From positions 1 to 60,042 of the IMG/VR virus record IMGVR_UViG_3300000301_000017: a stretch of 60,042 nt of DNA. The stretch is one strand, 5' to 3'. Under the pieces are notes generated by a model. That model saw only the letters and a list, made by a program, of their open reading frames with translations, was not told where the DNA came from and made no database searches. This DNA comes from a virus. This document shows, piece after piece, positions 3,173 through 60,042 of the stretch (the first letter of the stretch is position 1; the number at the start of each line of letters is the position of its first letter). A program made the position numbers and the translations under genes.

Positions 3173-4246
3173 TTATTTATCTGATTCGTCGGACGTTCCT
3201 TTAGGAAGTATTTCGAGAATCAAATAATCCCATAGCCTTTTGGCTTCTTCGTCGTTCATCATCGTAACTGCCCCAATCAGGCGTTCTTTGTAGTTAATAG
3301 GTGAAGAATTATCTCCTATGAATCCAGGATCTAAAAGGTCAATCAAAGGAATGCCAAGCAAATTTGCATATTTTTGAGCAATTGTGATTTTGGGGATCCG
3401 TTGACTGTTCTCGTATCGGCTAATAACCTGTTTAGAAGTATGAAGGAATTGCGCAAGTTGTTCCTGTGTCCATCCGTTCTTTTTACGAATATTCTTCAAT
3501 TTATTTCCAAAACTTGATATGCCAGTTGCGATTTCGGACAAGGAAGGAACTTTACAGACATCCTCTAATTCAGATTTATCGATTATCTCTGTGGCCATAA
3601 TTTTTTGATCCGATCTTCCAAACAAAAAATCCATACTTACATTAAAACAATCGGCAATACGATTTAAGATTTCGATTCCTAGCTCTCGTTCACCACGTTC
3701 ATACATATTTATACTGCTTTTTGAAGTTCCAATTTGATCTGCAAGAGCTTGTTGCGATAGTCCGGATTCTTGACGCAAAAGCTTTAATCTATCTTTAAAA
3801 GTATTTCTACTTTTAGATAGTTCGCATTTTTCGTGCCCAAGCAGGTAATCAACTGACACCCCAAAGTAATTTGCAATTTTATTGAGGGCGTTCCCTCGAG
3901 GCGTTAAATTTCTTTTTTTCCAGGTGGTAGGAGTCGATTTGCTGAGCCCCATTTCTAACGCGGCTGTAGTAGGAGAAATTCCTTTTTCATTGCACAGCCT
4001 TAAATAAATATCATAAAAAGAATATGTGCTTTCGCTTTCCGCTTCCTGTTCTATTTTTCCAGTCAAAATAAAATCGAGTGAAGTTTGCAGTACTTTCGCA
4101 TAAAGCATAACTTTATCCCGCCTCATATTGGCGATCTCTCCACTTTCCCATCTGGAAACAGTTGCTTCTGTCACACCAATCTGATCGGCAACGTATTTTT
4201 GCGTTAGACCAAGTTCTTTTCTACGTGCAAGCAAATAATTTCCCAT
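3173..4246 (-). CDS. Protein with four tandem XRE-type HTH domains
   Basis: Four repeats of the pattern L(R/K)..R...GL(T/S)Q..LA..(I/L)G.S...I(S/N).(W/Y)E.G appear at roughly aa 5, 80, 150 and 250. Confidence 0.75.
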   Translation of the reverse strand: MGNYLLARRKELGLTQKYVADQIGVTEATVSRWESGEIANMRRDKVMLYAKVLQTSLDFILTGKIEQEAESESTYSFYDIYLRLCNEKGISPTTAALEMGLSKSTPTTWKKRNLTPRGNALNKIANYFGVSVDYLLGHEKCELSKSRNTFKDRLKLLRQESGLSQQALADQIGTSKSSINMYERGERELGIEILNRIADCFNVSMDFLFGRSDQKIMATEIIDKSELEDVCKVPSLSEIATGISSFGNKLKNIRKKNGWTQEQLAQFLHTSKQVISRYENSQRIPKITIAQKYANLLGIPLIDLLDPGFIGDNSSPINYKERLIGAVTMMNDEEAKRLWDYLILEILPKGTSDESDK

Positions 4247-4536: not shown

Positions 4537-4929
4537 TCATTCTTTAGGTCCGAGACTTTGAAAGAAGTCTCGGACTATTTTTTTGCTTTTATCGTCCAGC
4601 TGCATATAGTTGGCAATGAATTTGATCATTTTCTTTACAAAAATGTCGTTCAATTGAATAGCCTGTGTGATATAATTCTCGAGCTCTGTAGAATGGGGAA
4701 GTTTTACAGACATTTCTCCTTCGCCAGTGCGCAACCACTTTTCATTAACATGGAATTCTCTGCAAATGGAACGAACAGCCGAATCAGATGGTATCCTCAC
4801 ATTTGTTTCATAGCTGGTAATCGTATTGGCTTTTAAACCAATCCGTTTTCCAAACTCTAGCTGTGTTAATCCTAATTCTTTACGCAACGATTTGATGCGT
4901 TTCCCAATTTCTTTTCTTATAGCATTCAT
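4537..4929 (-). CDS. XRE-family HTH repressor (CI-like), paralogue 1
   Basis: The N-terminal HTH reads LRKELGLTQLEFGKRIGLKANTITSYE. The C-terminal tail is nearly identical to that of 5006..5368. Confidence 0.8.
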   Translation of the reverse strand: MNAIRKEIGKRIKSLRKELGLTQLEFGKRIGLKANTITSYETNVRIPSDSAVRSICREFHVNEKWLRTGEGEMSVKLPHSTELENYITQAIQLNDIFVKKMIKFIANYMQLDDKSKKIVRDFFQSLGPKE

Positions 4930-5005
4930 ATATCTTTCCTACTCTCAATTAAGTTGCATTTTCAGAAAGTCGCTTCATTATGGAAGCTGTTACACAAAAC
5001 TGGGT

Positions 5006-5368
5006 CTATTCTTTAAGTCCAAGACTTTGAATGAAGTCTCGGACTATTTTTTTGCTTTTATCATCCAACTGCATATAGTTAACGATGATCTTCTTGATAA
5101 AATCATCATCTGATTGAATTACTTGTCCAATATAGGTCCCAAGTTCTGTCGCTGGGGGAAGCTTTAGGAACATTTCTCCTTCTCCTGTGCGTAACCACTT
5201 TTCGTTGACATTGAATTCTCTGCAAATAGCAGAAATATGAATGTCTTTTAGCTCCCTCTGACCTGTTTCAAACATAGCCAATGTAGATGCACCAACGTTA
5301 ATTTTTGAGCTAAATTCTCGTTGGCTTAATTTCAACGCTGAACGCAATTTCTTTAGTCTTTCGTTCAT
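5006..5368 (-). CDS. XRE-family HTH repressor (CI-like), paralogue 2, next to the divergent early promoter
   Basis: The HTH reads LRSALKLSQREFSSKINVGASTLAMFE. It shares NEKWLRTGEGEM and NYMQLDDKSKKIVRDF with the neighbouring gene. Confidence 0.8.
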   Translation of the reverse strand: MNERLKKLRSALKLSQREFSSKINVGASTLAMFETGQRELKDIHISAICREFNVNEKWLRTGEGEMFLKLPPATELGTYIGQVIQSDDDFIKKIIVNYMQLDDKSKKIVRDFIQSLGLKE

Positions 5369-5410
5369 GTGATAACCACCTCCTGTAGTTTCAGTATATC
5401 ACGCCGCCGC

Positions 5411-5468
5411 TCACTATGCAAACTTTTTTTAGATTATTCTTGACTTTTTGCATGCATAGTGATAATAT
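5411..5468 (+). promoter_or_regulatory. Early rightward promoter with operator inverted repeat
   Basis: TTGACT (5440..5445), a 17-nt spacer and TAATAT (5463..5468). The perfect 10-nt inverted repeat TCACTATGCA (5411..5420) / TGCATAGTGA (5453..5462) overlaps the spacer. A third TCACTA-like half-site lies near 5476..5485. Confidence 0.7.
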
Positions 5469-5521
5469 AAAATTGCTTAGTGAGCAAAATAAGTAACACT
5501 AAGTTATTTGGAAAAGGGGGG

Positions 5522-5689
5522 ATGAGGTTGCTCACAGAAACGCAGATGTCGGATGTGCTGGAAATTGCACATTTGCTTGAAAAGGTAGATCAAAAGTATC
5601 TACCGATGATCGCGACCGGTGTTTTTATGCTGCTGGCACGTGACCAGGTAGATAAAGAAAAAGGAGCTTCCGAAGTAGCTCCTAAGTAA
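5522..5689 (+). CDS. First early gene, small protein of unknown function
   Basis: A GGGGGG RBS precedes ATG 5522. It sits in a Cro-like position but has no clear HTH. Confidence 0.45.
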   Translation: MRLLTETQMSDVLEIAHLLEKVDQKYLPMIATGVFMLLARDQVDKEKGASEVAPK

Positions 5690-5784
5690 TGGTTATGAAT
5701 GGGCATAGAAACCCTAAACAGGCTAAAGAAAAATTTTATGCTGCTCTTGATGAACTGATTCAAGAAAAGGAGGTGAGAGCATGA
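5689..5784 (+). other. 31-codon ORF that looks like a truncated tail of the C-type RHH genes
   Basis: It ends ...ELIQEKEVRA with the same 21-nt junction gaaaaggaggtgagagcATGA as 6340..6360. Confidence 0.3.
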
Positions 5785-5921
5785 CCCGTGAACAAACGAC
5801 GATCCGCTTACCTGTTGAGCTCAAAGAAAAACTACAGCAAGAAGCCAACGTGAAAGGAAAATCCTATAACAATTTGGTTGAAATTATACTTTACAGTTGG
5901 GTCAGGAATTTTCTAAGATGA
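5781..5921 (+). CDS. RHH-like small protein, type A copy 1 (MTREQTTIRLP...)
   Basis: A beta-strand motif TTIRLP is followed by two predicted helices. It is ATGA-coupled to the upstream ORF and has paralogues at 6600 and 8481. Confidence 0.6.
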   Translation: MTREQTTIRLPVELKEKLQQEANVKGKSYNNLVEIILYSWVRNFLR

Positions 5922-6078
5922 TAGGCCCATTTTCCCGTTCGTAATCGGCGACCAGTTTCTTCAGTGTTCGTTCAATCTCTTTATTAGTTGACCGATCATT
6001 TTCCTTGGCAATATAGGACACCTTATTAAGCAATGTCTGGTCGATGCGTAGTGTATAGCGTGGTAAATCTGATGGCAT
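5902..6078 (-). CDS. Arc/Mnt-like RHH repressor, type B copy 1
   Basis: RYTLRIDQTLLNKVSYIAKENDRSTNKEIE matches the Arc pattern (f.lR.p..l...A...gRS.N.EI). It overlaps the A1 3' end convergently by 20 nt. Confidence 0.7.
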   Translation of the reverse strand: MPSDLPRYTLRIDQTLLNKVSYIAKENDRSTNKEIERTLKKLVADYERENGPIILENS

Positions 6079-6146
6079 ACGAGAATCCTCCTTTTGTCGT
6101 CACTTTATCGTCAGTATAGCGCAAAAAGAAAATTTTGAAAAGAATA

Positions 6147-6175
6147 TTGACATCACTTTTTCGTCACCGTATAAT
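6147..6175 (+). promoter_or_regulatory. Consensus sigma-70 promoter of cassette 1
   Basis: TTGACA, a 17-nt spacer and TATAAT. Repeated (t)cgtcac / gtgacgc motifs lie around it. Confidence 0.7.
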
Positions 6176-6198
6176 AATAAACGAGAGGTGACGCAATA

Positions 6199-6360
6199 GT
6201 GACGCAAAATGTAGTAAGATCAGGACTTAGACTCAGTCAGGCACTTAACCACGACTTAACAGAAATTGCGAAGGAGATTGGAATGAGGAAAAATCAGCTG
6301 ATAATTAAGATCCTCTGGGACTGGGTACAGGAGCAGAAGGAAAAGGAGGTGAGAGCATGA
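6199..6360 (+). CDS. RHH-like small protein, type C copy 1 (GTG start)
   Basis: RSGLRLSQALNHDLTEIAKEIGMRKNQLIIKILWDWVQEQKEKE. It shares a 28-nt identical stretch with copy 2. Confidence 0.55.
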   Translation: MTQNVVRSGLRLSQALNHDLTEIAKEIGMRKNQLIIKILWDWVQEQKEKEVRA

Positions 6361-6566
6361 ATGTGGAAGTTCTAAAAAACTTCTCGCTTAACGCCGAGAC
6401 AGGGGAGATCAAGATAAATGGAACTCCGTATAAAAATATAACCTACCTTTCCATGGTGATGAAGGATGGAAAGGTAGGCTTGGAGTTTCAAGATATGCGG
6501 TTTTACGCAAGCCATGAAGCAGACGGGTATTTTTTCTCATGGTTACCCAATGAAGTACCGCATTAA
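6357..6566 (+). CDS. 69-aa payload protein of cassette 1, unknown function
   Basis: It is ATGA-coupled to the C1 gene. There is weak resemblance (G.I.ING...G...LE) to 7397..7666. Confidence 0.5.
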   Translation: MNVEVLKNFSLNAETGEIKINGTPYKNITYLSMVMKDGKVGLEFQDMRFYASHEADGYFFSWLPNEVPH

Positions 6567-6599
6567 GGCATTTGCGATAGAAGAAGAGGGGTGAAAAAT

Positions 6600-6743
6600 A
6601 TGACCCGCGAACAAACGACGATCCGCTTACCACTGGACCTGAAAGAACAGATTCAAAAGCAAGCGGACCTTATGGGAATTACTTTGCACGACTTAATTTT
6701 GTTTATTCTCTGGGAAGACTTTCTACATACTTTTCCAAAATAA
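6600..6743 (+). CDS. RHH-like small protein, type A copy 2
   Basis: MTREQTTIRLPLDLKEQIQKQA. The first 32 nt match copy 1 except for one base. Confidence 0.6.
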   Translation: MTREQTTIRLPLDLKEQIQKQADLMGITLHDLILFILWEDFLHTFPK

Positions 6744-6873
6744 ACTCAATTTCTTTTGCTGTAGAGCGCTTGTTTTTTTCCGCTTCCTTCTTGATTATTT
6801 CAAGAAGCTCGGAATTTACACGCATCGTAAACCGTGTCTGATCTTCTCTAGTGAATGGGTCATTGCTTTTCAT
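6703..6873 (-). CDS. Arc/Mnt-like RHH repressor, type B copy 2
   Basis: RFTMRVNSELLEIIKKEAEKNKRSTAKEIE. It overlaps A2 convergently by 41 nt. Confidence 0.65.
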   Translation of the reverse strand: MKSNDPFTREDQTRFTMRVNSELLEIIKKEAEKNKRSTAKEIEFILEKYVESLPRE

Positions 6874-6931
6874 TTCTAGTCCCCCTTAGTGTCATTATGA
6901 CACAATGACGAAAAAAAGTAAAGACACCTTA

Positions 6932-6960
6932 TTGACACCAAATAGATGACGTGCTATTAT
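6932..6960 (+). promoter_or_regulatory. Consensus sigma-70 promoter of cassette 2
   Basis: TTGACA, a 17-nt spacer and TATTAT. The palindrome GTGTCATTATGACAC lies just upstream. Confidence 0.65.
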
Positions 6961-6987
6961 GGTAGCAAGGAAGGTGGTGTCAATAAT

Positions 6988-7149
6988 ATGACAAAAGACA
7001 CGGAAAGATTTACGTTACGAATGCCAAAGCGCCTTAAAAAACAGCTTGAAGCATGTAGTGTTCAAATGGGCATATCCCTCAATTCTCTGATGGTACAGCT
7101 GTTGTGGAGATGGGTACAGGAGCAGAAGGAAAAGGAGGCGAGAACATGA
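6988..7149 (+). CDS. RHH-like small protein, type C copy 2
   Basis: RFTLRMPKRLKKQLEACSVQMGISLNSLMVQLLWRWVQEQKEKE. A GGTGG RBS lies before ATG 6988. Confidence 0.6.
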   Translation: MTKDTERFTLRMPKRLKKQLEACSVQMGISLNSLMVQLLWRWVQEQKEKEART

Positions 7150-7328
7150 ACTTAGAAGAAAAGGCAAAAGACAAGATGAAGGAGTTTGAAGAAGCTGCCT
7201 CGCAGCTTCCCATTTTGTCCAAGAACTTCACGGTAGTCAACATTTTGCTGGCAGCGCAAGAGCTGTTTGCGCAAGAAGAATATGAAACCGTGATTGATCT
7301 CTGTGATGCAATGCTTAAGCATTTGTAA
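7146..7328 (+). CDS. 60-aa payload protein of cassette 2, unknown, predicted helical
   Basis: It is ATGA-coupled to C2 and has a clean ORF. Confidence 0.45.
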   Translation: MNLEEKAKDKMKEFEEAASQLPILSKNFTVVNILLAAQELFAQEEYETVIDLCDAMLKHL

Positions 7329-7396
7329 GCAAAATGCCGAAACGCCCCGCGGGGCGTCCGCCGGAGACAGCCTCCCGGCGCTGACGAGGCGGGCTA

Positions 7397-7666
7397 ATGG
7401 AAGGAGATGATGACATGTCAGATCATCAGGAAATGGGAGCGCGTATGGAGCTCAGTGGAGATGGAAACGTTGCAACGCTGATCATCAACGGTGTAGACCT
7501 TTCGAACTATGTTTCTGAAGTCACGTACCACAAAAAGGCTGGGGATTTAGCAACGCTGGAGATCGGCTTCAGTTATTTGAAGAGCGTGACGATCCGCGAC
7601 ATTGTGATTCCAAGCGTCCCTCCGGAGGTGGAAGCTGCCTTGAAAAACGAAAAGGCAGACTGCTGA
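7397..7666 (+). CDS. Small protein of unknown function
   Basis: The ORF has an RBS-like GGAAGGAG and distant similarity to 6357..6566. Confidence 0.45.
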   Translation: MEGDDDMSDHQEMGARMELSGDGNVATLIINGVDLSNYVSEVTYHKKAGDLATLEIGFSYLKSVTIRDIVIPSVPPEVEAALKNEKADC

Positions 7667-7700
7667 GGACAGTCTGCCGTAAAAGAAAGGAGAAAGCAAA

Positions 7701-7937
7701 ATGCGTATGCGTACATTGCCGCAGGCAATTGAAGAAATCAAAGCGAAAGATCCAGGCACATGCCTTACGCTGCGGGCTCTGCGCCGGCTCGTTTCTGAGC
7801 GACGCATTCCTGTTGCTTGGATGACGGCCAGGAAGCCGCTGATCGACCTAGACAAGCTGGAGACGTACCTTTATGAAATGCAACCCGAAGGAGCTCCAGC
7901 TGTTGCGGGTATTCGCCCCATACCGGAAAGGATTTGA
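7701..7937 (+). CDS. Excisionase/MerR-like HTH DNA-binding protein
   Basis: TLPQAIEEIKAKDPGTCLTLRALRRLVSERRIPV resembles Xis-type winged HTH proteins. It has an AAGGAG RBS. Confidence 0.5.
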   Translation: MRMRTLPQAIEEIKAKDPGTCLTLRALRRLVSERRIPVAWMTARKPLIDLDKLETYLYEMQPEGAPAVAGIRPIPERI

Positions 7938-7951
7938 AAGGAGAAGATATC

Positions 7952-8131
7952 ATGCTTGAAACCACCATTTACGCCGTGTTGATCGGCGCCGTCGCGGCGG
8001 GGACCATCGCCGCTGAAAAGAGATCCCGTCATCTGCGTGAGCAGCGCGCGGCAGACAAAGAAGCATACCGCATGCGCGTCCAGCAGAACCGCGCTGAGCT
8101 TCGCAAAGCCCTGCTGCAGGGTAGCCTGTGA
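7952..8131 (+). CDS. Small single-pass membrane protein
   Basis: A hydrophobic N-terminus is followed by a basic helical tail. A paralogue-like ORF lies at 9070..9234. Confidence 0.4.
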   Translation: MLETTIYAVLIGAVAAGTIAAEKRSRHLREQRAADKEAYRMRVQQNRAELRKALLQGSL

Positions 8132-8142
8132 GGTGGGACATC

Positions 8143-8484
8143 ATGTTTACAAAAGAAGAACTCGAAGAGATTGCGAAGGCGGACGCTGAGATCGACGCGA
8201 TGGAAGATACCGTAACGCCTGAAAGCCTTGCAATCTCTCGAGAACTTGATAAGGTGGCGCATAAGCAGGCAGTAAGCGCAGGCAGATTAAAAAGCCTTAC
8301 ACCGGAGGAGCGAGCTGAACACCGGAAGCTCCTCCATCGAGAATACATGAGGGACTACAATCATAGACCCTATGTAATGGAAAGGATAAAGGCCTACAAT
8401 AGCCGACCAGAAGTACGAGAAAAGCGCATTGCATATCTACGCGAGTGGCGGGCAAGAAAAAAACGGCAGGAGGAATTCCAATGA
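8143..8484 (+). CDS. Hypothetical protein
   Basis: The ORF has a GAGGTGG RBS and no recognisable motif. Confidence 0.4.
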   Translation: MFTKEELEEIAKADAEIDAMEDTVTPESLAISRELDKVAHKQAVSAGRLKSLTPEERAEHRKLLHREYMRDYNHRPYVMERIKAYNSRPEVREKRIAYLREWRARKKRQEEFQ

Positions 8485-8621
8485 ATCGCGAACAAACAAC
8501 AATCAGAATTCCTGTGAAACTCAAAGAGACCATTAAGATAGAAGCGAAAAAAAGAGGATTTTCATTCAACGCTTTGATTCTGATGATCTTGAACGAGGAA
8601 CGAAACCATCATCAAACGTAA
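8481..8621 (+). CDS. RHH-like small protein, type A copy 3
   Basis: MNREQTTIRIPVKLKETIKIEAKKRGFSFNALIL. It is ATGA-coupled to the upstream gene. Confidence 0.6.
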   Translation: MNREQTTIRIPVKLKETIKIEAKKRGFSFNALILMILNEERNHHQT

Positions 8622-8787
8622 TTGGTCCATGTTTTCCTTCCCATTCGCTTATATGGGACAAGATAAGCTGTTCAATTTCTTTGTTTGCCGATCTTCCATT
8701 ACGATCAGCAATGTATTTTAGCTTGTCCATTGTCTCAGAAGGAATTCTGAGCGCATACTGCGGATGCTTATGAACGCCTTGTGGCAT
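8566..8787 (-). CDS. Arc/Mnt-like RHH repressor, type B copy 3
   Basis: QYALRIPSETMDKLKYIADRNGRSANKEIE. It overlaps A3 convergently by 56 nt. Confidence 0.7.
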   Translation of the reverse strand: MPQGVHKHPQYALRIPSETMDKLKYIADRNGRSANKEIEQLILSHISEWEGKHGPITFDDGFVPRSRSSESKR

Positions 8788-8851
8788 ATTGACACCTCCT
8801 TGGCACTTTTATGATTTTATAATAACCGCAAAAATAAAAAACGAAAAGATA

Positions 8852-8880
8852 TTGACATCACAATGACGGCCACTTATAAT
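8852..8880 (+). promoter_or_regulatory. Consensus sigma-70 promoter of cassette 3
   Basis: TTGACA, a 17-nt spacer and TATAAT, in the same context (atattgacatcac) as cassette 1. Confidence 0.7.
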
Positions 8881-8923
8881 ATAAGTGTCAAGTGGACATC
8901 CACTACGTGCTGGAGGTGATCAT

Positions 8924-9076
8924 GTGCAACGGTCGCGAGTAGGACTCCGCATACCTTACGATCTCAATACCTATTTGATTTTACGATCGGAGAAACAAGG
9001 AGTATCAAAGAACGCCCTGATCCTGCAGATCCTGTGGGAATGGGTAGAGAATCAGAAGGAGGAACCAAAATGTTAA
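8924..9076 (+). CDS. RHH-like small protein, type C copy 3 (GTG start)
   Basis: VGLRIPYDLNTYLILRSEKQGVSKNALILQILWEWVENQKE. A GGAGGTG RBS precedes it. Confidence 0.55.
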   Translation: MQRSRVGLRIPYDLNTYLILRSEKQGVSKNALILQILWEWVENQKEEPKC

Positions 9077-9234
9077 GCATTATCTTGATTATCACCGGTG
9101 GCGCGTGCATCGCGACGGCGGCCATCATGTTGACGGCAACGGCCAATCATAACCATCGTGTGCGTGCACAGCGGGCCAAACAAATCGCAGCTGCACGCGC
9201 AGAGATGCGCAAGCAGCTGAAAGGAGGAGAATAA
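9070..9234 (+). CDS. 54-aa single-pass membrane protein, payload of cassette 3
   Basis: MLSIILIITGGACIATAAIMLTA is followed by a basic tail. Its start overlaps the C3 stop. Confidence 0.45.
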   Translation: MLSIILIITGGACIATAAIMLTATANHNHRVRAQRAKQIAAARAEMRKQLKGGE

Positions 9235-9237
9235 TTG

Positions 9238-9600
9238 ATGGATAAAGAAAAGGCCGCCCCCGCGCCGAAGCGCGAAAGCGGCAAAGAAAACTTATCTTCT
9301 ATTAGTATCGCACAAAGCACCCATTTTGTCAAGGTATCAGATGTGCTGCATGCGTTGAAAGAAGACGACGAAACCCCGACCGAGTGGTCCAAAGGATACA
9401 ACGCTGCTCTCGGTGATATGAAGACGGTCATTAGAGGCCTAAAAAAATACCGAGCGGAGGAAGATGATGTATGGAGCCGGCTGCGGCGTGACTGTGAGGA
9501 TCCAAATAGCGGACTAAGCGCTTGTGAGTACAACGTGCCAGGACCAAATGGAGGACGGTATCTGATAAGCATTATGTATCGAGAGACAAGCAGAAGATAA
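9238..9600 (+). CDS. Hypothetical protein
   Basis: The ORF has a GGAGGAG RBS. Confidence 0.4.
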   Translation: MDKEKAAPAPKRESGKENLSSISIAQSTHFVKVSDVLHALKEDDETPTEWSKGYNAALGDMKTVIRGLKKYRAEEDDVWSRLRRDCEDPNSGLSACEYNVPGPNGGRYLISIMYRETSRR

Positions 9601-9612
9601 GGAGGATCCGAA

Positions 9613-9825
9613 ATGATTGTAGCAGGATATGAAGGAATTGGTCCAGAGTCAGGAAAGCATGTAGACGCAGATGACGCGCTGAACTATGCGATGATCCGCT
9701 GCGGGATCACTTGGGACGCACCGATCGATGGATTCAAACCGGACGTTCGCGATGAGTTCGAGCAGGCGTTTATGGAGTGGTTTTACTCTGGTAACTGGGT
9801 GCCTGTAATCACAAAAGAAGCGTGA
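9613..9825 (+). CDS. Hypothetical protein
   Basis: The ORF has an AAGGAGGA RBS. Confidence 0.4.
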   Translation: MIVAGYEGIGPESGKHVDADDALNYAMIRCGITWDAPIDGFKPDVRDEFEQAFMEWFYSGNWVPVITKEA

Positions 9826-9835
9826 GGAGAAAACT

Positions 9836-10342
9836 ATGGATCATTTATATGAACTGACCGCTGACTATATGCGGCTGCTGGATGCAATCGAGGCGGGGGA
9901 GATCCCCGAAGAAGCGATTGAAGATACGCTGGCAGGCATTGAAGGTGAAATTGACGAGAAGATTGACGCGATTGCCTGCATGGTCAAGGAATTGACTGGC
10001 GAGGCGGAAAGCATCTCGGAAGAAGAACGAAGCCTTGCAGAGCGCCGACGCGCGAAGGAACGGAAGGCCGCACGCCTGAAGGATTATATCCGCGACCAGA
10101 TGGCGCTGACGAATAGGAAAAAGATCGAAACGGCGCGCAATGTTGTGCGCTTAGGAGGATTAACCAAGCGCGTTGAGATCACAGATCTAGAAGCGCTCAA
10201 AAGTTATAAGGAAGCATGGAAGCCGTACACCTACAAGGTTACGGACGTAGACAAGGTCGCACTTAGGGCCTTGCTGCAAGAAGGGAAACAAATCCCTGGT
10301 GCGAAATTATCAGAAGGGCAGCGCACCTTGACGATCAAGTGA
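9836..10342 (+). CDS. Siphovirus Gp157-like protein
   Basis: LYELTADYMRLLDAIEAGEIPEEAIEDTL..IEGE...KIDAIA is the typical Gp157-family N-terminus. It lies upstream of a recombinase. Confidence 0.6.
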   Translation: MDHLYELTADYMRLLDAIEAGEIPEEAIEDTLAGIEGEIDEKIDAIACMVKELTGEAESISEEERSLAERRRAKERKAARLKDYIRDQMALTNRKKIETARNVVRLGGLTKRVEITDLEALKSYKEAWKPYTYKVTDVDKVALRALLQEGKQIPGAKLSEGQRTLTIK

Positions 10343-23709: not shown

Positions 23710-24496
23710 TAACTTTGGTTCACGTTAAATTCCTCTAATTTCTGGGACACCCTGAAAAGGGCAATCAGAAGCGAAGCAGCAAAGGACGTTGTCTTATGGA
23801 GATTTGGAAGCCGATAAAAGGTTTTGAAGGATTTTATCAAGTCAGCAACAAGGGAAATGTAAAAAGTTTAGGTGGATGGTGTGGAAGTTCATTACATAAA
23901 GAACACACACTTTCCAAAAGCATTACTCGTGATGGATATGAGAAAGTAAGACTGAACTGGGATGGAAAAGATGTTACTGTAAAAGTGCATCGCCTTGTTG
24001 CAGAAGCATTTATTGAAAATCCTCTCCAAAAGAACACCGTAAACCACATTGACGGAAACAAACGAAACAACTGTGTCGAAAATCTAGAATGGTGCGACAG
24101 AAGCGAACAAATGCTTCACGCATATAAGTTGGGGCTCAAGAAGGCGGCAAAAGGGACTCGCAATCGTAACGCCAAATTAACAGATGAAGATGTAAAAGAA
24201 ATCAGAAGGGTGTATGTAAAATACAGTCGAGAATTTGGTACAGTGGCCCTTGGAAAGAAATACGGAGTAACAAACCGTGTGATAGATAATGTGGTTCTAG
24301 GAAAGTCTTATTGCTGAACGTTCAACGACTATCGAAAGCAAGGAACGGTTATCACGCTTTTTGTAAGTAGAGTAGGGCGCAAGGGCGCTCGAAACGGGGA
24401 AAGCCACCAGTGGCTAAGATATAGTCTGAACTGCATGGTAACATGCAGAGAAAAGTCTCATAGGGAAACCGAACCGGACTTTTCGTAACACAATTG
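23710..24496 (+). mobile_element. Group I intron 1 in terL, carrying an HNH homing endonuclease ORF
   Basis: P1 forms between exon GUGGAU (splice-site U.G) and intron GUUCAC (23718..23723). The terminal G is at 24496 in caattg. The core contains agatatagtctgaac, a group-I-like sequence. Confidence 0.75.
23796..24317 (+). CDS. HNH homing endonuclease (NUMOD4 plus HNH_3 type)
   Basis: EIWKPIKGFEGFYQVSNKGNV (NUMOD4) and VNHIDGNKRNNCVENLEW (HNH). Confidence 0.85.
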   Translation: MEIWKPIKGFEGFYQVSNKGNVKSLGGWCGSSLHKEHTLSKSITRDGYEKVRLNWDGKDVTVKVHRLVAEAFIENPLQKNTVNHIDGNKRNNCVENLEWCDRSEQMLHAYKLGLKKAAKGTRNRNAKLTDEDVKEIRRVYVKYSREFGTVALGKKYGVTNRVIDNVVLGKSYC

Positions 24497-24615
24497 AGAA
24501 GAAGCTTATGAAATCGGCGACGAATCGGATTTTGACATGCTCGACGAGTCTATCCGTGGCGCGCTTCCGCCAGAGACAGGACTATTTAAACAGGTGACGC
24601 TCACATTTAATCCGT
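24497..24615 (+). CDS. terL: Terminase large subunit, exon 2
   Basis: It encodes (I)EEAYEIGDESDFDMLDESIRGALPPETGLFKQVTLTFNP(W). Confidence 0.75.
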
Positions 24616-24916
24616 AGATTTTGCGGCAATATCGAGGAATCGATATTGAAAACTCCTTTAATTCATGGAAACCCCTAACGTAAAGACGAGGGCAACCATG
24701 ATCCAAGTCAAAAGCAATGAGCATTTTGAAAGGTGCAACGACTATCGAAAGCAGAAAGGGCGCTGATGAGGCGCCTTTATTTTGTAAGTAGAGTAAGGGC
24801 AAGTGCCCTGAAATGGGGAGGGCCCAAAATGGGCTGTGATATAGTCTGAACTGCTGTGAAAGCAGCAGCAGCTTAAATAGCGGTGCGGTTGTAGCGAAAC
24901 CGTACGAACAGAATTG
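24616..24916 (+). mobile_element. Group I intron 2 in terL (no ORF)
   Basis: P1 forms between exon CCGU and intron GCGG (24623..24626). The terminal G is at 24916 in gaattg. The 3' half is homologous to intron 1 (caacgactatcgaaagca, ttgtaagtagagta, gatatagtctgaactgc). Confidence 0.7.
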
Positions 24917-25701
24917 GGAATGAGCATCACTGGATTAAAAAGCGATTTTTTGATAAAGAAAGCCCCGACGTCCTCGCAATGACGACGAACTACACGTGCA
25001 ACGAGTGGCTCGATGAGGCGGACCTGCGGCTCTTTGAGACTATGAAGACGCAAAACCCGCGGCGTTACCAGGTCGCCGGCCTGGGCGAGTGGGGGATAGT
25101 TGATGGCCTAGTCTATGAAGACTGGGAAGAAAAAGCCTTTTCCGTCGATGAGATTCGCGGAAAAAAGGGCGTGCACGCAGCGTTTGGCCTCGACTTCGGC
25201 TTTACAAACGACCCAGCTGCGCTATTCTGCGGGCTTGTGGAACTCGCTACACATACCATCTGGGTGTTTGATGAGATGTACGCAAAGGGCCTTACAAACC
25301 AGCAGCTTGCAAAAAAGATCAAGGAGATGGGCTACGCCAAAGAACACATCATCGCTGATTGCGCTGAGGAAAAAAGCATCAAGGAACTGCAGGAGGCCGG
25401 GCTGCGGCGCGTGGAACCGAGCCAGAAGGGCAAGGACTCCGTTATGGCTGGCGTGCAGTACGTCCAGAACTTTCACATCATTGTGCATCCGCGGTGCGTG
25501 AACTTCCTGACGGAGCTATCCGTCTATACTTGGGAAAAAGACAAGAAGACGGGAAAATCCATCAATAAGCCTGTAGACATGAACAACCACTTGATGGACG
25601 CCATGCGATACGGAATTCAATCTGTGCGCAAGTTGTCAAGTCCACCGTCGTCGCAGGCCGTCAAAGGTAATCATCAAGATAATTACTGGGGGAGGGTGTG
25701 A
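24917..25701 (+). CDS. terL: Terminase large subunit, exon 3 (nuclease domain)
   Basis: (W)NEHHWIKKRFF...GLDFGFTNDPAA...ADCAEEKSI...NNHLMDAMRY. The three exons sum to 1314 nt, a multiple of 3. Confidence 0.8.
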
Positions 25702-60019: not shown

Positions 60020-60042
60020 TTCAAATCCTGTCACCTCGACCA
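60020..60042 (+). repeat. attR core
   Basis: It is identical to 1..23. Confidence 0.75.

Follow-up and report, generated by a model that had tools for sequence, protein, structure and literature searches.

A widespread three-gene ribbon-helix-helix module of gut Clostridia prophages, present in three copies in the early region of one phage genome

The IMG/VR virus record IMGVR_UViG_3300000301_000017, analysed here over its full 60,042 nucleotides (the window), carries downstream of its repressor gene nine small genes that an earlier reading of the DNA alone (the original prediction) described as three diverged tandem copies of a ribbon-helix-helix (RHH) switch cassette. Each cassette was said to consist of genes A, B and C followed by an unrelated small gene, its payload, and the threefold repeat was regarded as unusual. 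Is this repeat a local peculiarity built around its payloads, or does it belong to something more general? We found that the repeats are copies of an undescribed and widespread three-gene RHH switch of gut Clostridia prophages, in which A converges on and overlaps B, and B diverges from C across a strong promoter.

All nine RHH genes lie within 5781-9076 and form three A→←B←P→C units (Table 1). The open reading frame (ORF) listing bears out the layout originally described, including the convergent A/B overlaps of 20-56 nt, and A1 and A2 are indeed identical at 31 of their first 32 nt. Hidden Markov models derived from the A, B and C proteins of the three cassettes and scanned against every ORF of the window returned exactly these nine RHH genes and no others.

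All three B proteins exceed the cut-off of the Pfam Arc family (22.4, 23.1 and 35.3 bits for B1, B2 and B3, respectively, with a cut-off of 20.4). The B profile matches P22 Arc (E 2.6e-9) and Mnt (E 1.9e-5) in PDB, and B3 is 40% identical with P22 Arc across its whole length; these matches mark B as a true Arc/Mnt homologue. A and C fall under the Pfam cut-offs, the best sub-threshold Pfam matches of A being antitoxin RHH families, and A, B and C alike match PHROG 582, annotated as Arc-like repressor, with E-values from 1e-6 to 3e-10. The AlphaFold models of A1 and C1, made from alignments of about 50 sequences, have predicted local distance difference test (pLDDT) values of 91.7 and 91.1. Nearly all of their top 50 Foldseek matches in PDB are RHH proteins (PutA, CopG, Arc, antitoxins and Reg576) with template modelling scores of 0.7-0.9, Reg576 being among the matches of A with 34% identity. 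The glycine of the RHH turn (G-x-S/T/N before helix B) is invariant in both families (G26 in A, G28 in C). Both are minimal RHH domains of 45-53 aa without a toxin-binding tail, and cross-matches place A and C nearer each other than either is to B. On the basis of the profile matches and the folds predicted for A1 and C1, all nine cassette proteins are RHH proteins, as had been proposed. A fold other than RHH, which the original prediction had named as grounds for refuting it, is thereby not borne out.

The strand of A, E-Q-T-T-I-R-L-P, is invariant over all subtypes. The strictly conserved, DNA-facing Q5, T7 and R9 of this strand occupy the positions of the DNA-contact residues Q9, N11 and R13 of Arc. 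A strong Shine-Dalgarno sequence precedes A, and the EQTTIRLP codons vary at synonymous sites, for which reason we rejected the conserved 5' coding DNA as a DNA site in itself. The ratio of non-synonymous to synonymous substitution rates (dN/dS) is 0.12-0.25 in the closest pairs, the only ones for which it is informative, dS being saturated at about 1 otherwise. As a separate observation, the antisense of the EQTTIRLPAE codons can form a short terminator-like hairpin with a U-rich run (UUGUUGUUUG) in L023, L029, L033, L034, L037 and L043 (L numbers denote the loci compared); it is absent from the A genes of the window and may be due to chance.

Clostridia genomes, viral contigs and metagenomes yielded over 80 A/B pairs in the same A→←B←→C order, and the Clostridioides difficile phage phiC2 has it too, so that the triplication is not the local oddity it had seemed. 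An exhaustive profile search places 238 clusters (50% identity, E<=1e-10) in the A family. About 20 of 26 genome loci show the order, and all 26 belong to Clostridia, including Lachnospiraceae, Acetatifactor, Roseburia, Oscillospiraceae, Ruminococcaceae and Peptococcaceae; the host of the window phage is probably also a member of this class. The order is further present in the distant prophage L010 and in seven IMG/VR contigs, one of them with two tandem triads, and metagenomes added 49 further unique A/B pairs. Three copies are the maximum seen, with two in L021 and L041. In the cultured phage phiC2 (NC_009231, L053), a 47-aa A (MEIEQATIRLP...) is encoded at 5591-5734 and overlaps p60, the B gene, by 41 nt, with p61 as C. 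A appears to be systematically passed over in annotation: it is unannotated in phiC2, and none of the 51 clusters of an A-family search has a functional name. The 52 clusters of a C-family search are likewise nameless, and look-ups of clusters by exact sequence returned neither a name nor a host. Megablast of 5000-10000 against 50,697 phage records gave no match, and tblastn with the A consensus gave none at E<=1e-3, the query being short and phiC2 in fact carrying a divergent A.

The A/B 3' overlap is present in every pair, with lengths of 4-83 nt. Its length equals 2 modulo 3 in 32 of 34 pairs from one set and 44 of 49 from another (76/83, the two sets not being de-duplicated against each other). 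Such a fixed phase is expected if each base between the two protein cores is coding, which argues that both ORFs are real and the overlap ancestral. It also follows from the overlap that no terminator can separate A from B.

Each B-C spacer of the window contains a promoter facing C. As originally stated, these are close to or at consensus: P_C1 and P_C3 (both TTGACA-17-TATAAT) match at 12/12 positions and P_C2 (TTGACA-17-TATTAT) at 11/12, and in a promoter scan they are the only plus-strand matches of at least 11/12 in 4900-10000. On the minus strand, an 11/12 match (TTGACA-16-CATAAT, 6983-6956) lies inside the B2-C2 spacer. Across loci the spacer is 98-168 nt long, and the promoter facing C scores at least 11/12 in 23 of 31 cases and at least 10/12 in 29 of 31. 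Position-wise information anchored on the -35 showed conserved A-tracts upstream of P_C and a TG before its -10. On the opposite strand, the -10 of the B promoter, P_B, is a good one and often reads TGnTATAAT. It lies 35-40 nt ahead of where B begins, and two operator-like repeats come immediately after it.

The cgtcac/gtgacg and gtgtca/tgacac motifs pointed out in the original prediction proved to be such repeats, with three 11-bp pairs each in cassettes 1 and 3. In cassette 1 these are CGTCAC/CGTCAG at 6098/6109, CATCAC/CGTCAC at 6151/6162 and GTGACG at 6188/6199, the last covering the C1 start codon. Cassette 3 has TGACAC/TGGCAC at 8790/8801 (over the ribosome-binding site of B3), GACATCAC/GACGGCCAC at 8854/8865 and GTGTCA/GACATCCAC at 8885/8895, and cassette 2 has the palindrome GTGTCAttaTGACAC at 6889-6903, GACACC at 6923/6934, TGACG at 6947 and GTGTCA at 6977, at the ribosome-binding site of C2. 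The -35, spacer and +1 of P_C are covered by these repeats, which are predicted operators. In L010 they stand at relative positions 0, 11, 33 and 44, and 11-bp pairs were found wherever spacing was measured; an 11-bp spacing is the geometry of the Arc operator. The repeats differ by subtype and co-vary with the strand sequences of B and C: TGACAAC goes with B 'YALRIP' and C 'GLRIPYDLNT', TGACGTCA with B 'RFTLR' and C 'RFTFRLP', AGATATCA with B 'NPYPLRVD' and C 'RFLIxIP', and GTGAATTCAC with one further subtype.

How the cassettes are exchanged can be read from close relatives of the window (L001-L006 and L048), which are 94-98% identical with it from 7327 onwards and differ from it between cI and 7327. 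The 21-mer GAAAAGGAGGTGAGAGCATGA that had been put forward as a recombination point occurs twice exactly and a third time with two mismatches (junction copies 1-3, Table 1), none being expected in shuffles, and the two identical copies flank A1-B1-C1. L003 joins window 4901-5784 straight to 6340-6580, leaving one junction copy where the window has copies 1 and 2, and L005 joins 5689-5784 straight to 7129-7325. Since both crossovers fall inside the 21 nt, the junction is a real recombination joint. It is at the same time a near-perfect Firmicute extended Shine-Dalgarno sequence (AAGGAGGTGA) followed by an ATGA stop/start overlap; the same Shine-Dalgarno sequence precedes 14 of 29 A genes elsewhere, and in L002 it precedes payload 1 without an overlapping upstream ORF. 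The 'truncated fourth C-type tail' seen at 5689-5784 in the original prediction is instead the remnant of a Cro-like helix-turn-helix (HTH) gene that is intact in L004 and L005; it has only its last ~7 codons in common with C1 and C2, and these are the Shine-Dalgarno sequence of the next gene.

A larger exchange is visible in L048, which carries a triad of another subtype at the position of cassette 3. The first half of its A resembles A2 and the second is foreign, and its C begins with a foreign half and continues with one that is 98% identical to window 9011-9123; that is, the C3 3' half from 9011 is kept, and the C 5' half, B and the A 3' half are of the other subtype. These chimeras imply that the unit of exchange comprises the A 3' half, B, the operators and the C 5' half, which are all the subtype-specific parts. 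Recombination at the midpoint of A was found in both L048 and P0075. Recombination takes place in the parts that are conserved, the 5' half of A and the 3' half of C, and chimeric 92-96-aa 'C2-prime' proteins without a strand are debris of the same process. The module thus offers a clean example of specificity-block exchange with recombination in conserved gene halves.

In the window and in independent phages, the integrase gene is followed by those for a cI-like repressor and cro, then by no or only a few small genes, the A→←B←→C triad, further small genes and, last, Rad52/ERF, SSB and DnaC-like genes. The triads lie 3' of cI/cro and 5' of the replication genes in the window, L010, L049, L050 (whose cI-like repressor carries Peptidase_S24) and phiC2, which is where the decision for the lytic programme is executed. 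Payload 3 is followed, without an intervening terminator, by Gp157-like, SSB and replication genes, and both P_C3 and the phiC2 promoter P_C(p61) run into Gp157-like, ERF/SSB and replication genes. Terminator prediction found no convincing rightward terminator in 4900-10000, the sole candidate being a weak hairpin inside payload 2. Two leftward-only hairpins stand within the rightward operon (5662-5683 and 7654-7678), and the B1 and B3 transcripts are the only obvious leftward transcripts that they could end. The B1 transcript may plausibly end at the first, in which case it would run antisense to the whole of A1 together with the A1 ribosome-binding site, and the second is a candidate 3' end of the B3 transcript.

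We tentatively prefer a reading, to which we give not quite an even chance, in which every unit, inserted into the early rightward operon immediately after cro, works as an internal promoter gated by a repressor. Gene content, folds, homology, the conserved layout, promoters, subtype-specific repeats and recombination joints are shown by the sequences; which protein would bind which site, the direction of every regulatory arrow and above all the role of A are what we infer here. P_C would be a sigma-A promoter of maximal strength (A-tract UP element, TTGACA, TG and TATAAT) beyond the control of the cI repressor. P_B, a weak extended -10 promoter, would drive leftward expression of B, and B would shut P_C in the lysogen through the 11-bp-paired repeats over the -35, spacer and +1 or ribosome-binding site of P_C, while also binding the repeat pair that closely follows the -10 of P_B. 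C, encoded first behind P_C, would bind the same repeats, limit P_C after firing and shut P_B. Such a division, with B as a Mnt-like maintenance repressor of P_C and C as an Arc/Cro-like feedback repressor, is somewhat probable. A, as the last gene of the upstream transcription unit, would provide the input together with convergent transcription: owing to the 3' overlap, transcription arriving from upstream (begun at the early rightward promoter P_R or at the preceding P_C) would necessarily cross B in antisense, and transcription of B would cross A in antisense. Firing of the upstream unit would thus switch B off by collision or antisense pairing plus the A protein, and P_C would open. That A antagonises B is possible and rather doubtful; it might act on a shared TGAC/-35 core, on some other site in phage or host DNA, or on a partner protein. 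Three units of differing operator specificity in series would form a relay from P_R to the replication genes.

Several observations weigh against this gated-promoter reading. Coding constraint alone suffices to explain the fixed phase of the overlap. B and C occur as a pair lacking A in L007 (beside polC) and in the Brevibacillus phage Jimmer1 (two B genes), and module 1 of phiC2 lacks a canonical A, having in its place an unannotated, different 45-aa RHH (L051 3171-3308) that does not overlap p53 and is separated from it by an 11-nt gap. No universal A operator was found across loci between 500 nt upstream of A and 500 nt downstream of C, by k-mer coverage in four sub-regions, paired direct and inverted k-mers or position-wise information anchored on the -35; the search returned only the Shine-Dalgarno sequence, the -35 and the A-tracts. 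With an invariant A strand, variable operators and no universal motif, A cannot use the subtype-specific operators in any obvious way. Leftward terminators upstream of A, found at 16 of 32 loci and at 5 of 32 on the other strand, are no more than suggestive, the T-rich minus strand biasing this control.

The original prediction placed the payload at the centre, and we regard this as unlikely. As in P22 immI, B (as Mnt) and C (as Arc) would let the gene behind C be expressed in a short burst before repressing it tightly; that gene would encode an antirepressor or anti-defence protein needed at entry, with A as an accessory. The homology of B to Arc and Mnt and the divergent pair around a strong promoter agree with this, and burst-then-shut-off of establishment genes by an autoregulated RHH protein is documented for Reg576 (PMC6294495). 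The stop/start coupling of C and payload also holds in all three cassettes; the specific tie that it seemed to imply does not, since in L003, L004 and L005 it is a Cro-like gene, not C, that immediately precedes payloads 1 and 2, and the tandem triads of L021 and L041 pass from C straight to the next A with no payload. Antirepressor cargo is backed by phiC2 module 1 only, where a Bro-N antirepressor stands behind a C-like RHH with an ANT antirepressor upstream. The proposal that the window payloads are antirepressors found no such backing: payloads 1-3 have no Ant, Bro or KilAC domain and no family match in Pfam, PHROGs or PADLOC, and PADLOC gave no defence-system match for A, B, C or payloads. 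A suspected similarity between payload 1 and g89 was not significant. The run of P_C3 and P_C(p61) into recombination and replication genes does not fit a payload-centred system either, and A and the universal overlap are left unexplained by it. The payloads look like ordinary mosaic early accessory genes that share a strong Shine-Dalgarno sequence by happenstance. The product of 7952-8131 (+) and payload 3 (9070-9234, +) are alike in build, each having a transmembrane helix at the N terminus and a helical, basic tail at the C terminus, and recall small membrane toxins or holin-like peptides. A toxin-antitoxin or addiction cassette, with C or A as RHH antitoxin and a peptide such as payload 3 as toxin, is nonetheless scarcely credible: these two peptides and the antitoxin-family matches of A speak for it, whereas Pfam and PADLOC detected no toxin family, A and C lack a toxin-binding tail, the payloads are mutually unrelated and dispensable in relatives, and a divergent Arc homologue with a consensus promoter into replication genes is unfitting for such a locus.

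Two further readings start from the subtypes. B might mainly repress the P_C of incoming related phages, with the B/operators/C 5' half block being swapped to escape repression and three blocks giving three immunity specificities. The exchange of the block comprising the A 3' half, B, operators and C 5' half between otherwise 94-98% identical phages (L048 and the window), the many operator subtypes, the different repeats in each window cassette and the fact that relatives differ chiefly in the cassettes they carry all accord with such stacked superinfection immunity. It presumes B production in lysogens, assigns A no role and is complementary to the gated promoter rather than an alternative to it, and as the main function we hold it to be quite unlikely. 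That A is an antirepressor at the protein level, poisoning operator binding through mixed RHH dimers or tetramers with B (or C) by way of a subtype-matched second helix, we judge distinctly improbable. The helix-B half of A co-varies perfectly with the B subtype in the triads inspected by eye while strand and helix A are invariant, and the lack of an A-specific DNA motif points the same way; recombination at the A midpoint in L048 and P0075, together with the overlap of the A 3' end with B, means that linkage alone explains the co-variation. The strict conservation of DNA-facing Q5, T7 and R9 argues for a DNA target, and we know of no natural heteromeric RHH repressor. An extension of the gated-promoter reading, unlikely in our view, makes the triads orthogonal repressor toggles in series, a relay or 'combination lock' in which A is the universal key, acting by its invariant DNA-contact strand or by a B-matched second helix that poisons B, and one stage opens the next. 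If true, this would be a new switch architecture of three paralogous RHH proteins with an obligatory gene overlap, and it would control lysis-lysogeny progression in a large share of gut Clostridia prophages.

Among the closest known systems is P22 immI (mnt - Pmnt/Pant - arc - ant), with which the original prediction had compared the B/promoter/C arrangement. The likeness holds for the divergent Arc/Mnt-family RHH pair around back-to-back promoters with predicted operators, for the very strong rightward promoter with a small RHH as first gene, and for antisense transcription as part of the design, provided by sar in P22 (PMC2629481). The module nevertheless falls outside immI as that system is defined: it lacks ant in the window, belongs to the early operon beside cro, whereas immI is a moron in the P22 late operon, and includes a third RHH gene, A, whose 3' overlap with the gene of the leftward repressor is obligatory. 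It also occurs in up to three copies in series, the last promoter driving recombination and replication genes. Reg576 of the Bacillus plasmid p576 is a small RHH protein that acts on short repeats arranged in pairs to repress strong promoters, two dimers binding each operator cooperatively, and autoregulation gives a burst and then shut-off on cell entry (PMC6294495). Small RHH regulator, strong promoters and paired repeats are alike in our module, where the operators are predicted; unlike the module, Reg576 is a single plasmid regulator without a divergent maintenance repressor or convergent overlap. Opposed units overlap in coliphage 186 pR/pL, lambda cII/oop and Enterococcus pCF10 prgQ/prgX, the stronger silencing the weaker by collision or antisense. 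There, promoters or a small RNA overlap, whereas in the module the overlap joins two coding 3' ends, both of RHH genes. In anti-CRISPR acr-aca operons the acr gene precedes the gene of the Aca repressor, which shuts the strong promoter of the operon; the order here is the reverse, with the regulator first.

The same B and C families are present as p53/p54 and p60/p61 of phiC2 and gp63-65 of Jimmer1, between cro and the ERF/SSB genes (PMC4168068). So far these have been annotated as 'Arc-like' or noted as duplicated genes only; the paper on Paenibacillus larvae and Brevibacillus phages merely notes duplicated arc-like genes. We found no description of the triad in the literature; most subscription journals were outside our coverage, and earlier work is possible. 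Regulation of temperate phages in gut Clostridia, including C. difficile, is almost unstudied, and according to a 2024 paper on phiCDKH01, no report in the current literature deals directly with the maintenance of lysogeny in C. difficile phages. The module is directly testable because it is present in the cultured phage phiC2. Its third component and obligatory convergent gene overlap extend the classical Arc/Mnt paradigm, and it constitutes a natural library of small repressor/operator sets of apparently differing specificity on one promoter scaffold, of possible use for Firmicute synthetic circuits.

Table 1. Coordinates of the early-region features in the window (strand +, rightward; -, leftward;., not stranded)
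Feature	Position	Strand	Description
cI-like HTH repressor gene	5006-5368	-	Divergent from presumed early rightward promoter
Presumed early rightward promoter region	5409-5485	+	TTGACT-17-TAATAT with TG at 5440-5468
Terminator-like hairpin with U tract	5662-5683	-	Leftward-only; beyond A1, within rightward early operon
31-aa ORF	5689-5784	+	3' remnant of 66-aa Cro-like HTH gene; ends in junction copy 1
Junction copy 1	5764-5784	+	Extended Shine-Dalgarno AAGGAGGTGA and ATGA stop/start overlap; serves A1
A1	5781-5921	+	46-aa RHH, invariant strand REQTTIRLP
B1	5902-6078	-	58-aa Arc/Mnt-family RHH; 20-nt 3' overlap with A1
Control region 1	6079-6198	.	P_B1 -10 TATACT 6118-6113 leftward; P_C1 6147-6175
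C1	6199-6360	+	53-aa RHH, first gene behind P_C1
Junction copy 2	6340-6360	+	Shine-Dalgarno and ATGA; serves payload 1
Payload 1	6357-6566	+	69 aa
A2	6600-6743	+	47-aa RHH
B2	6703-6873	-	56-aa Arc-family RHH; 41-nt 3' overlap with A2
Control region 2	6874-6987	.	P_C2 6932-6960; P_B2 TTTACT-17-CATAAT 6922-6894
C2	6988-7149	+	53-aa RHH
Junction copy 3	7129-7149	+	2 mismatches; serves payload 2
Payload 2	7146-7328	+	60 aa, helical
Type II hammerhead ribozyme	7335-7398	+	RF02276, 40.8 bits (gathering score 37); between payload 2 and next gene
Four unrelated small early genes	7415-8484	+	83, 78, 59 (transmembrane) and 113 aa; between cassettes 2 and 3
Strong terminator	7654-7678	-	Leftward-only; within rightward operon
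A3	8481-8621	+	46-aa RHH
B3	8566-8787	-	73-aa Arc homologue; 56-nt 3' overlap with A3
Control region 3	8788-8923	.	P_C3 TTGACA-17-TATAAT 8852-8880
C3	8924-9076	+	50-aa RHH, GTG start
Payload 3	9070-9234	+	54 aa, N-terminal transmembrane segment, basic tail

The window itself is bounded by a 23-nt identical direct repeat, TTCAAATCCTGTCACCTCGACCA, at 1-23 and 60020-60042, which looks like a tRNA 3' end, that is, an attachment-site (att) core. A tyrosine integrase gene with an inserted HTH domain (132-1538, -) adjoins the left repeat. The att-like end repeats and the adjoining integrase indicate that the window is one whole prophage or phage genome. The early rightward promoter is flanked by an inverted repeat, GCTCACTA...TAGTGAGC. 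Between cassettes 2 and 3, the last of the four small genes is stop/start-coupled (ATGA) to A3. The hammerhead ribozyme behind payload 2 has an intact core (CGAAAC and CUGACGAG) with two supported stems and would cut the P_C2 transcript that links cassette 2 to A3. It is kept in close relatives and was found near triads in none of 35 other loci, which rules it out as a general companion of the triad.

Four further features were observed. A FuFi-1 RNA motif (RF02986) lies at 2595-2754 of L035, ~350 nt upstream of the A gene of its triad. Between the integrase and the cI-like repressor of the window, 3173-4246 (-) encodes a 357-aa protein of unusual architecture with at least three tandem XRE-type HTH domains. 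A candidate cis-antisense RNA of ~55 nt (9243-9332, -) has a promoter TTGACA-17-GATACT with TG (9332-9304) and a 13-bp GC-rich hairpin (9282-9253) with a U tract (dG -27.5 kcal/mol, z -4.2). The gene next after payload 3 (9238-9600) has its first ~18 codons opposite this candidate RNA. Finally, a group I intron (RF00028, 64.4 bits) was detected at 24606-24868 (+), with a NUMOD4/HNH homing-endonuclease ORF before it (23796-24317) and the C-terminal nuclease domain of the large terminase after it (24979-25701), and the large terminase gene thus appears to be split by an intron.

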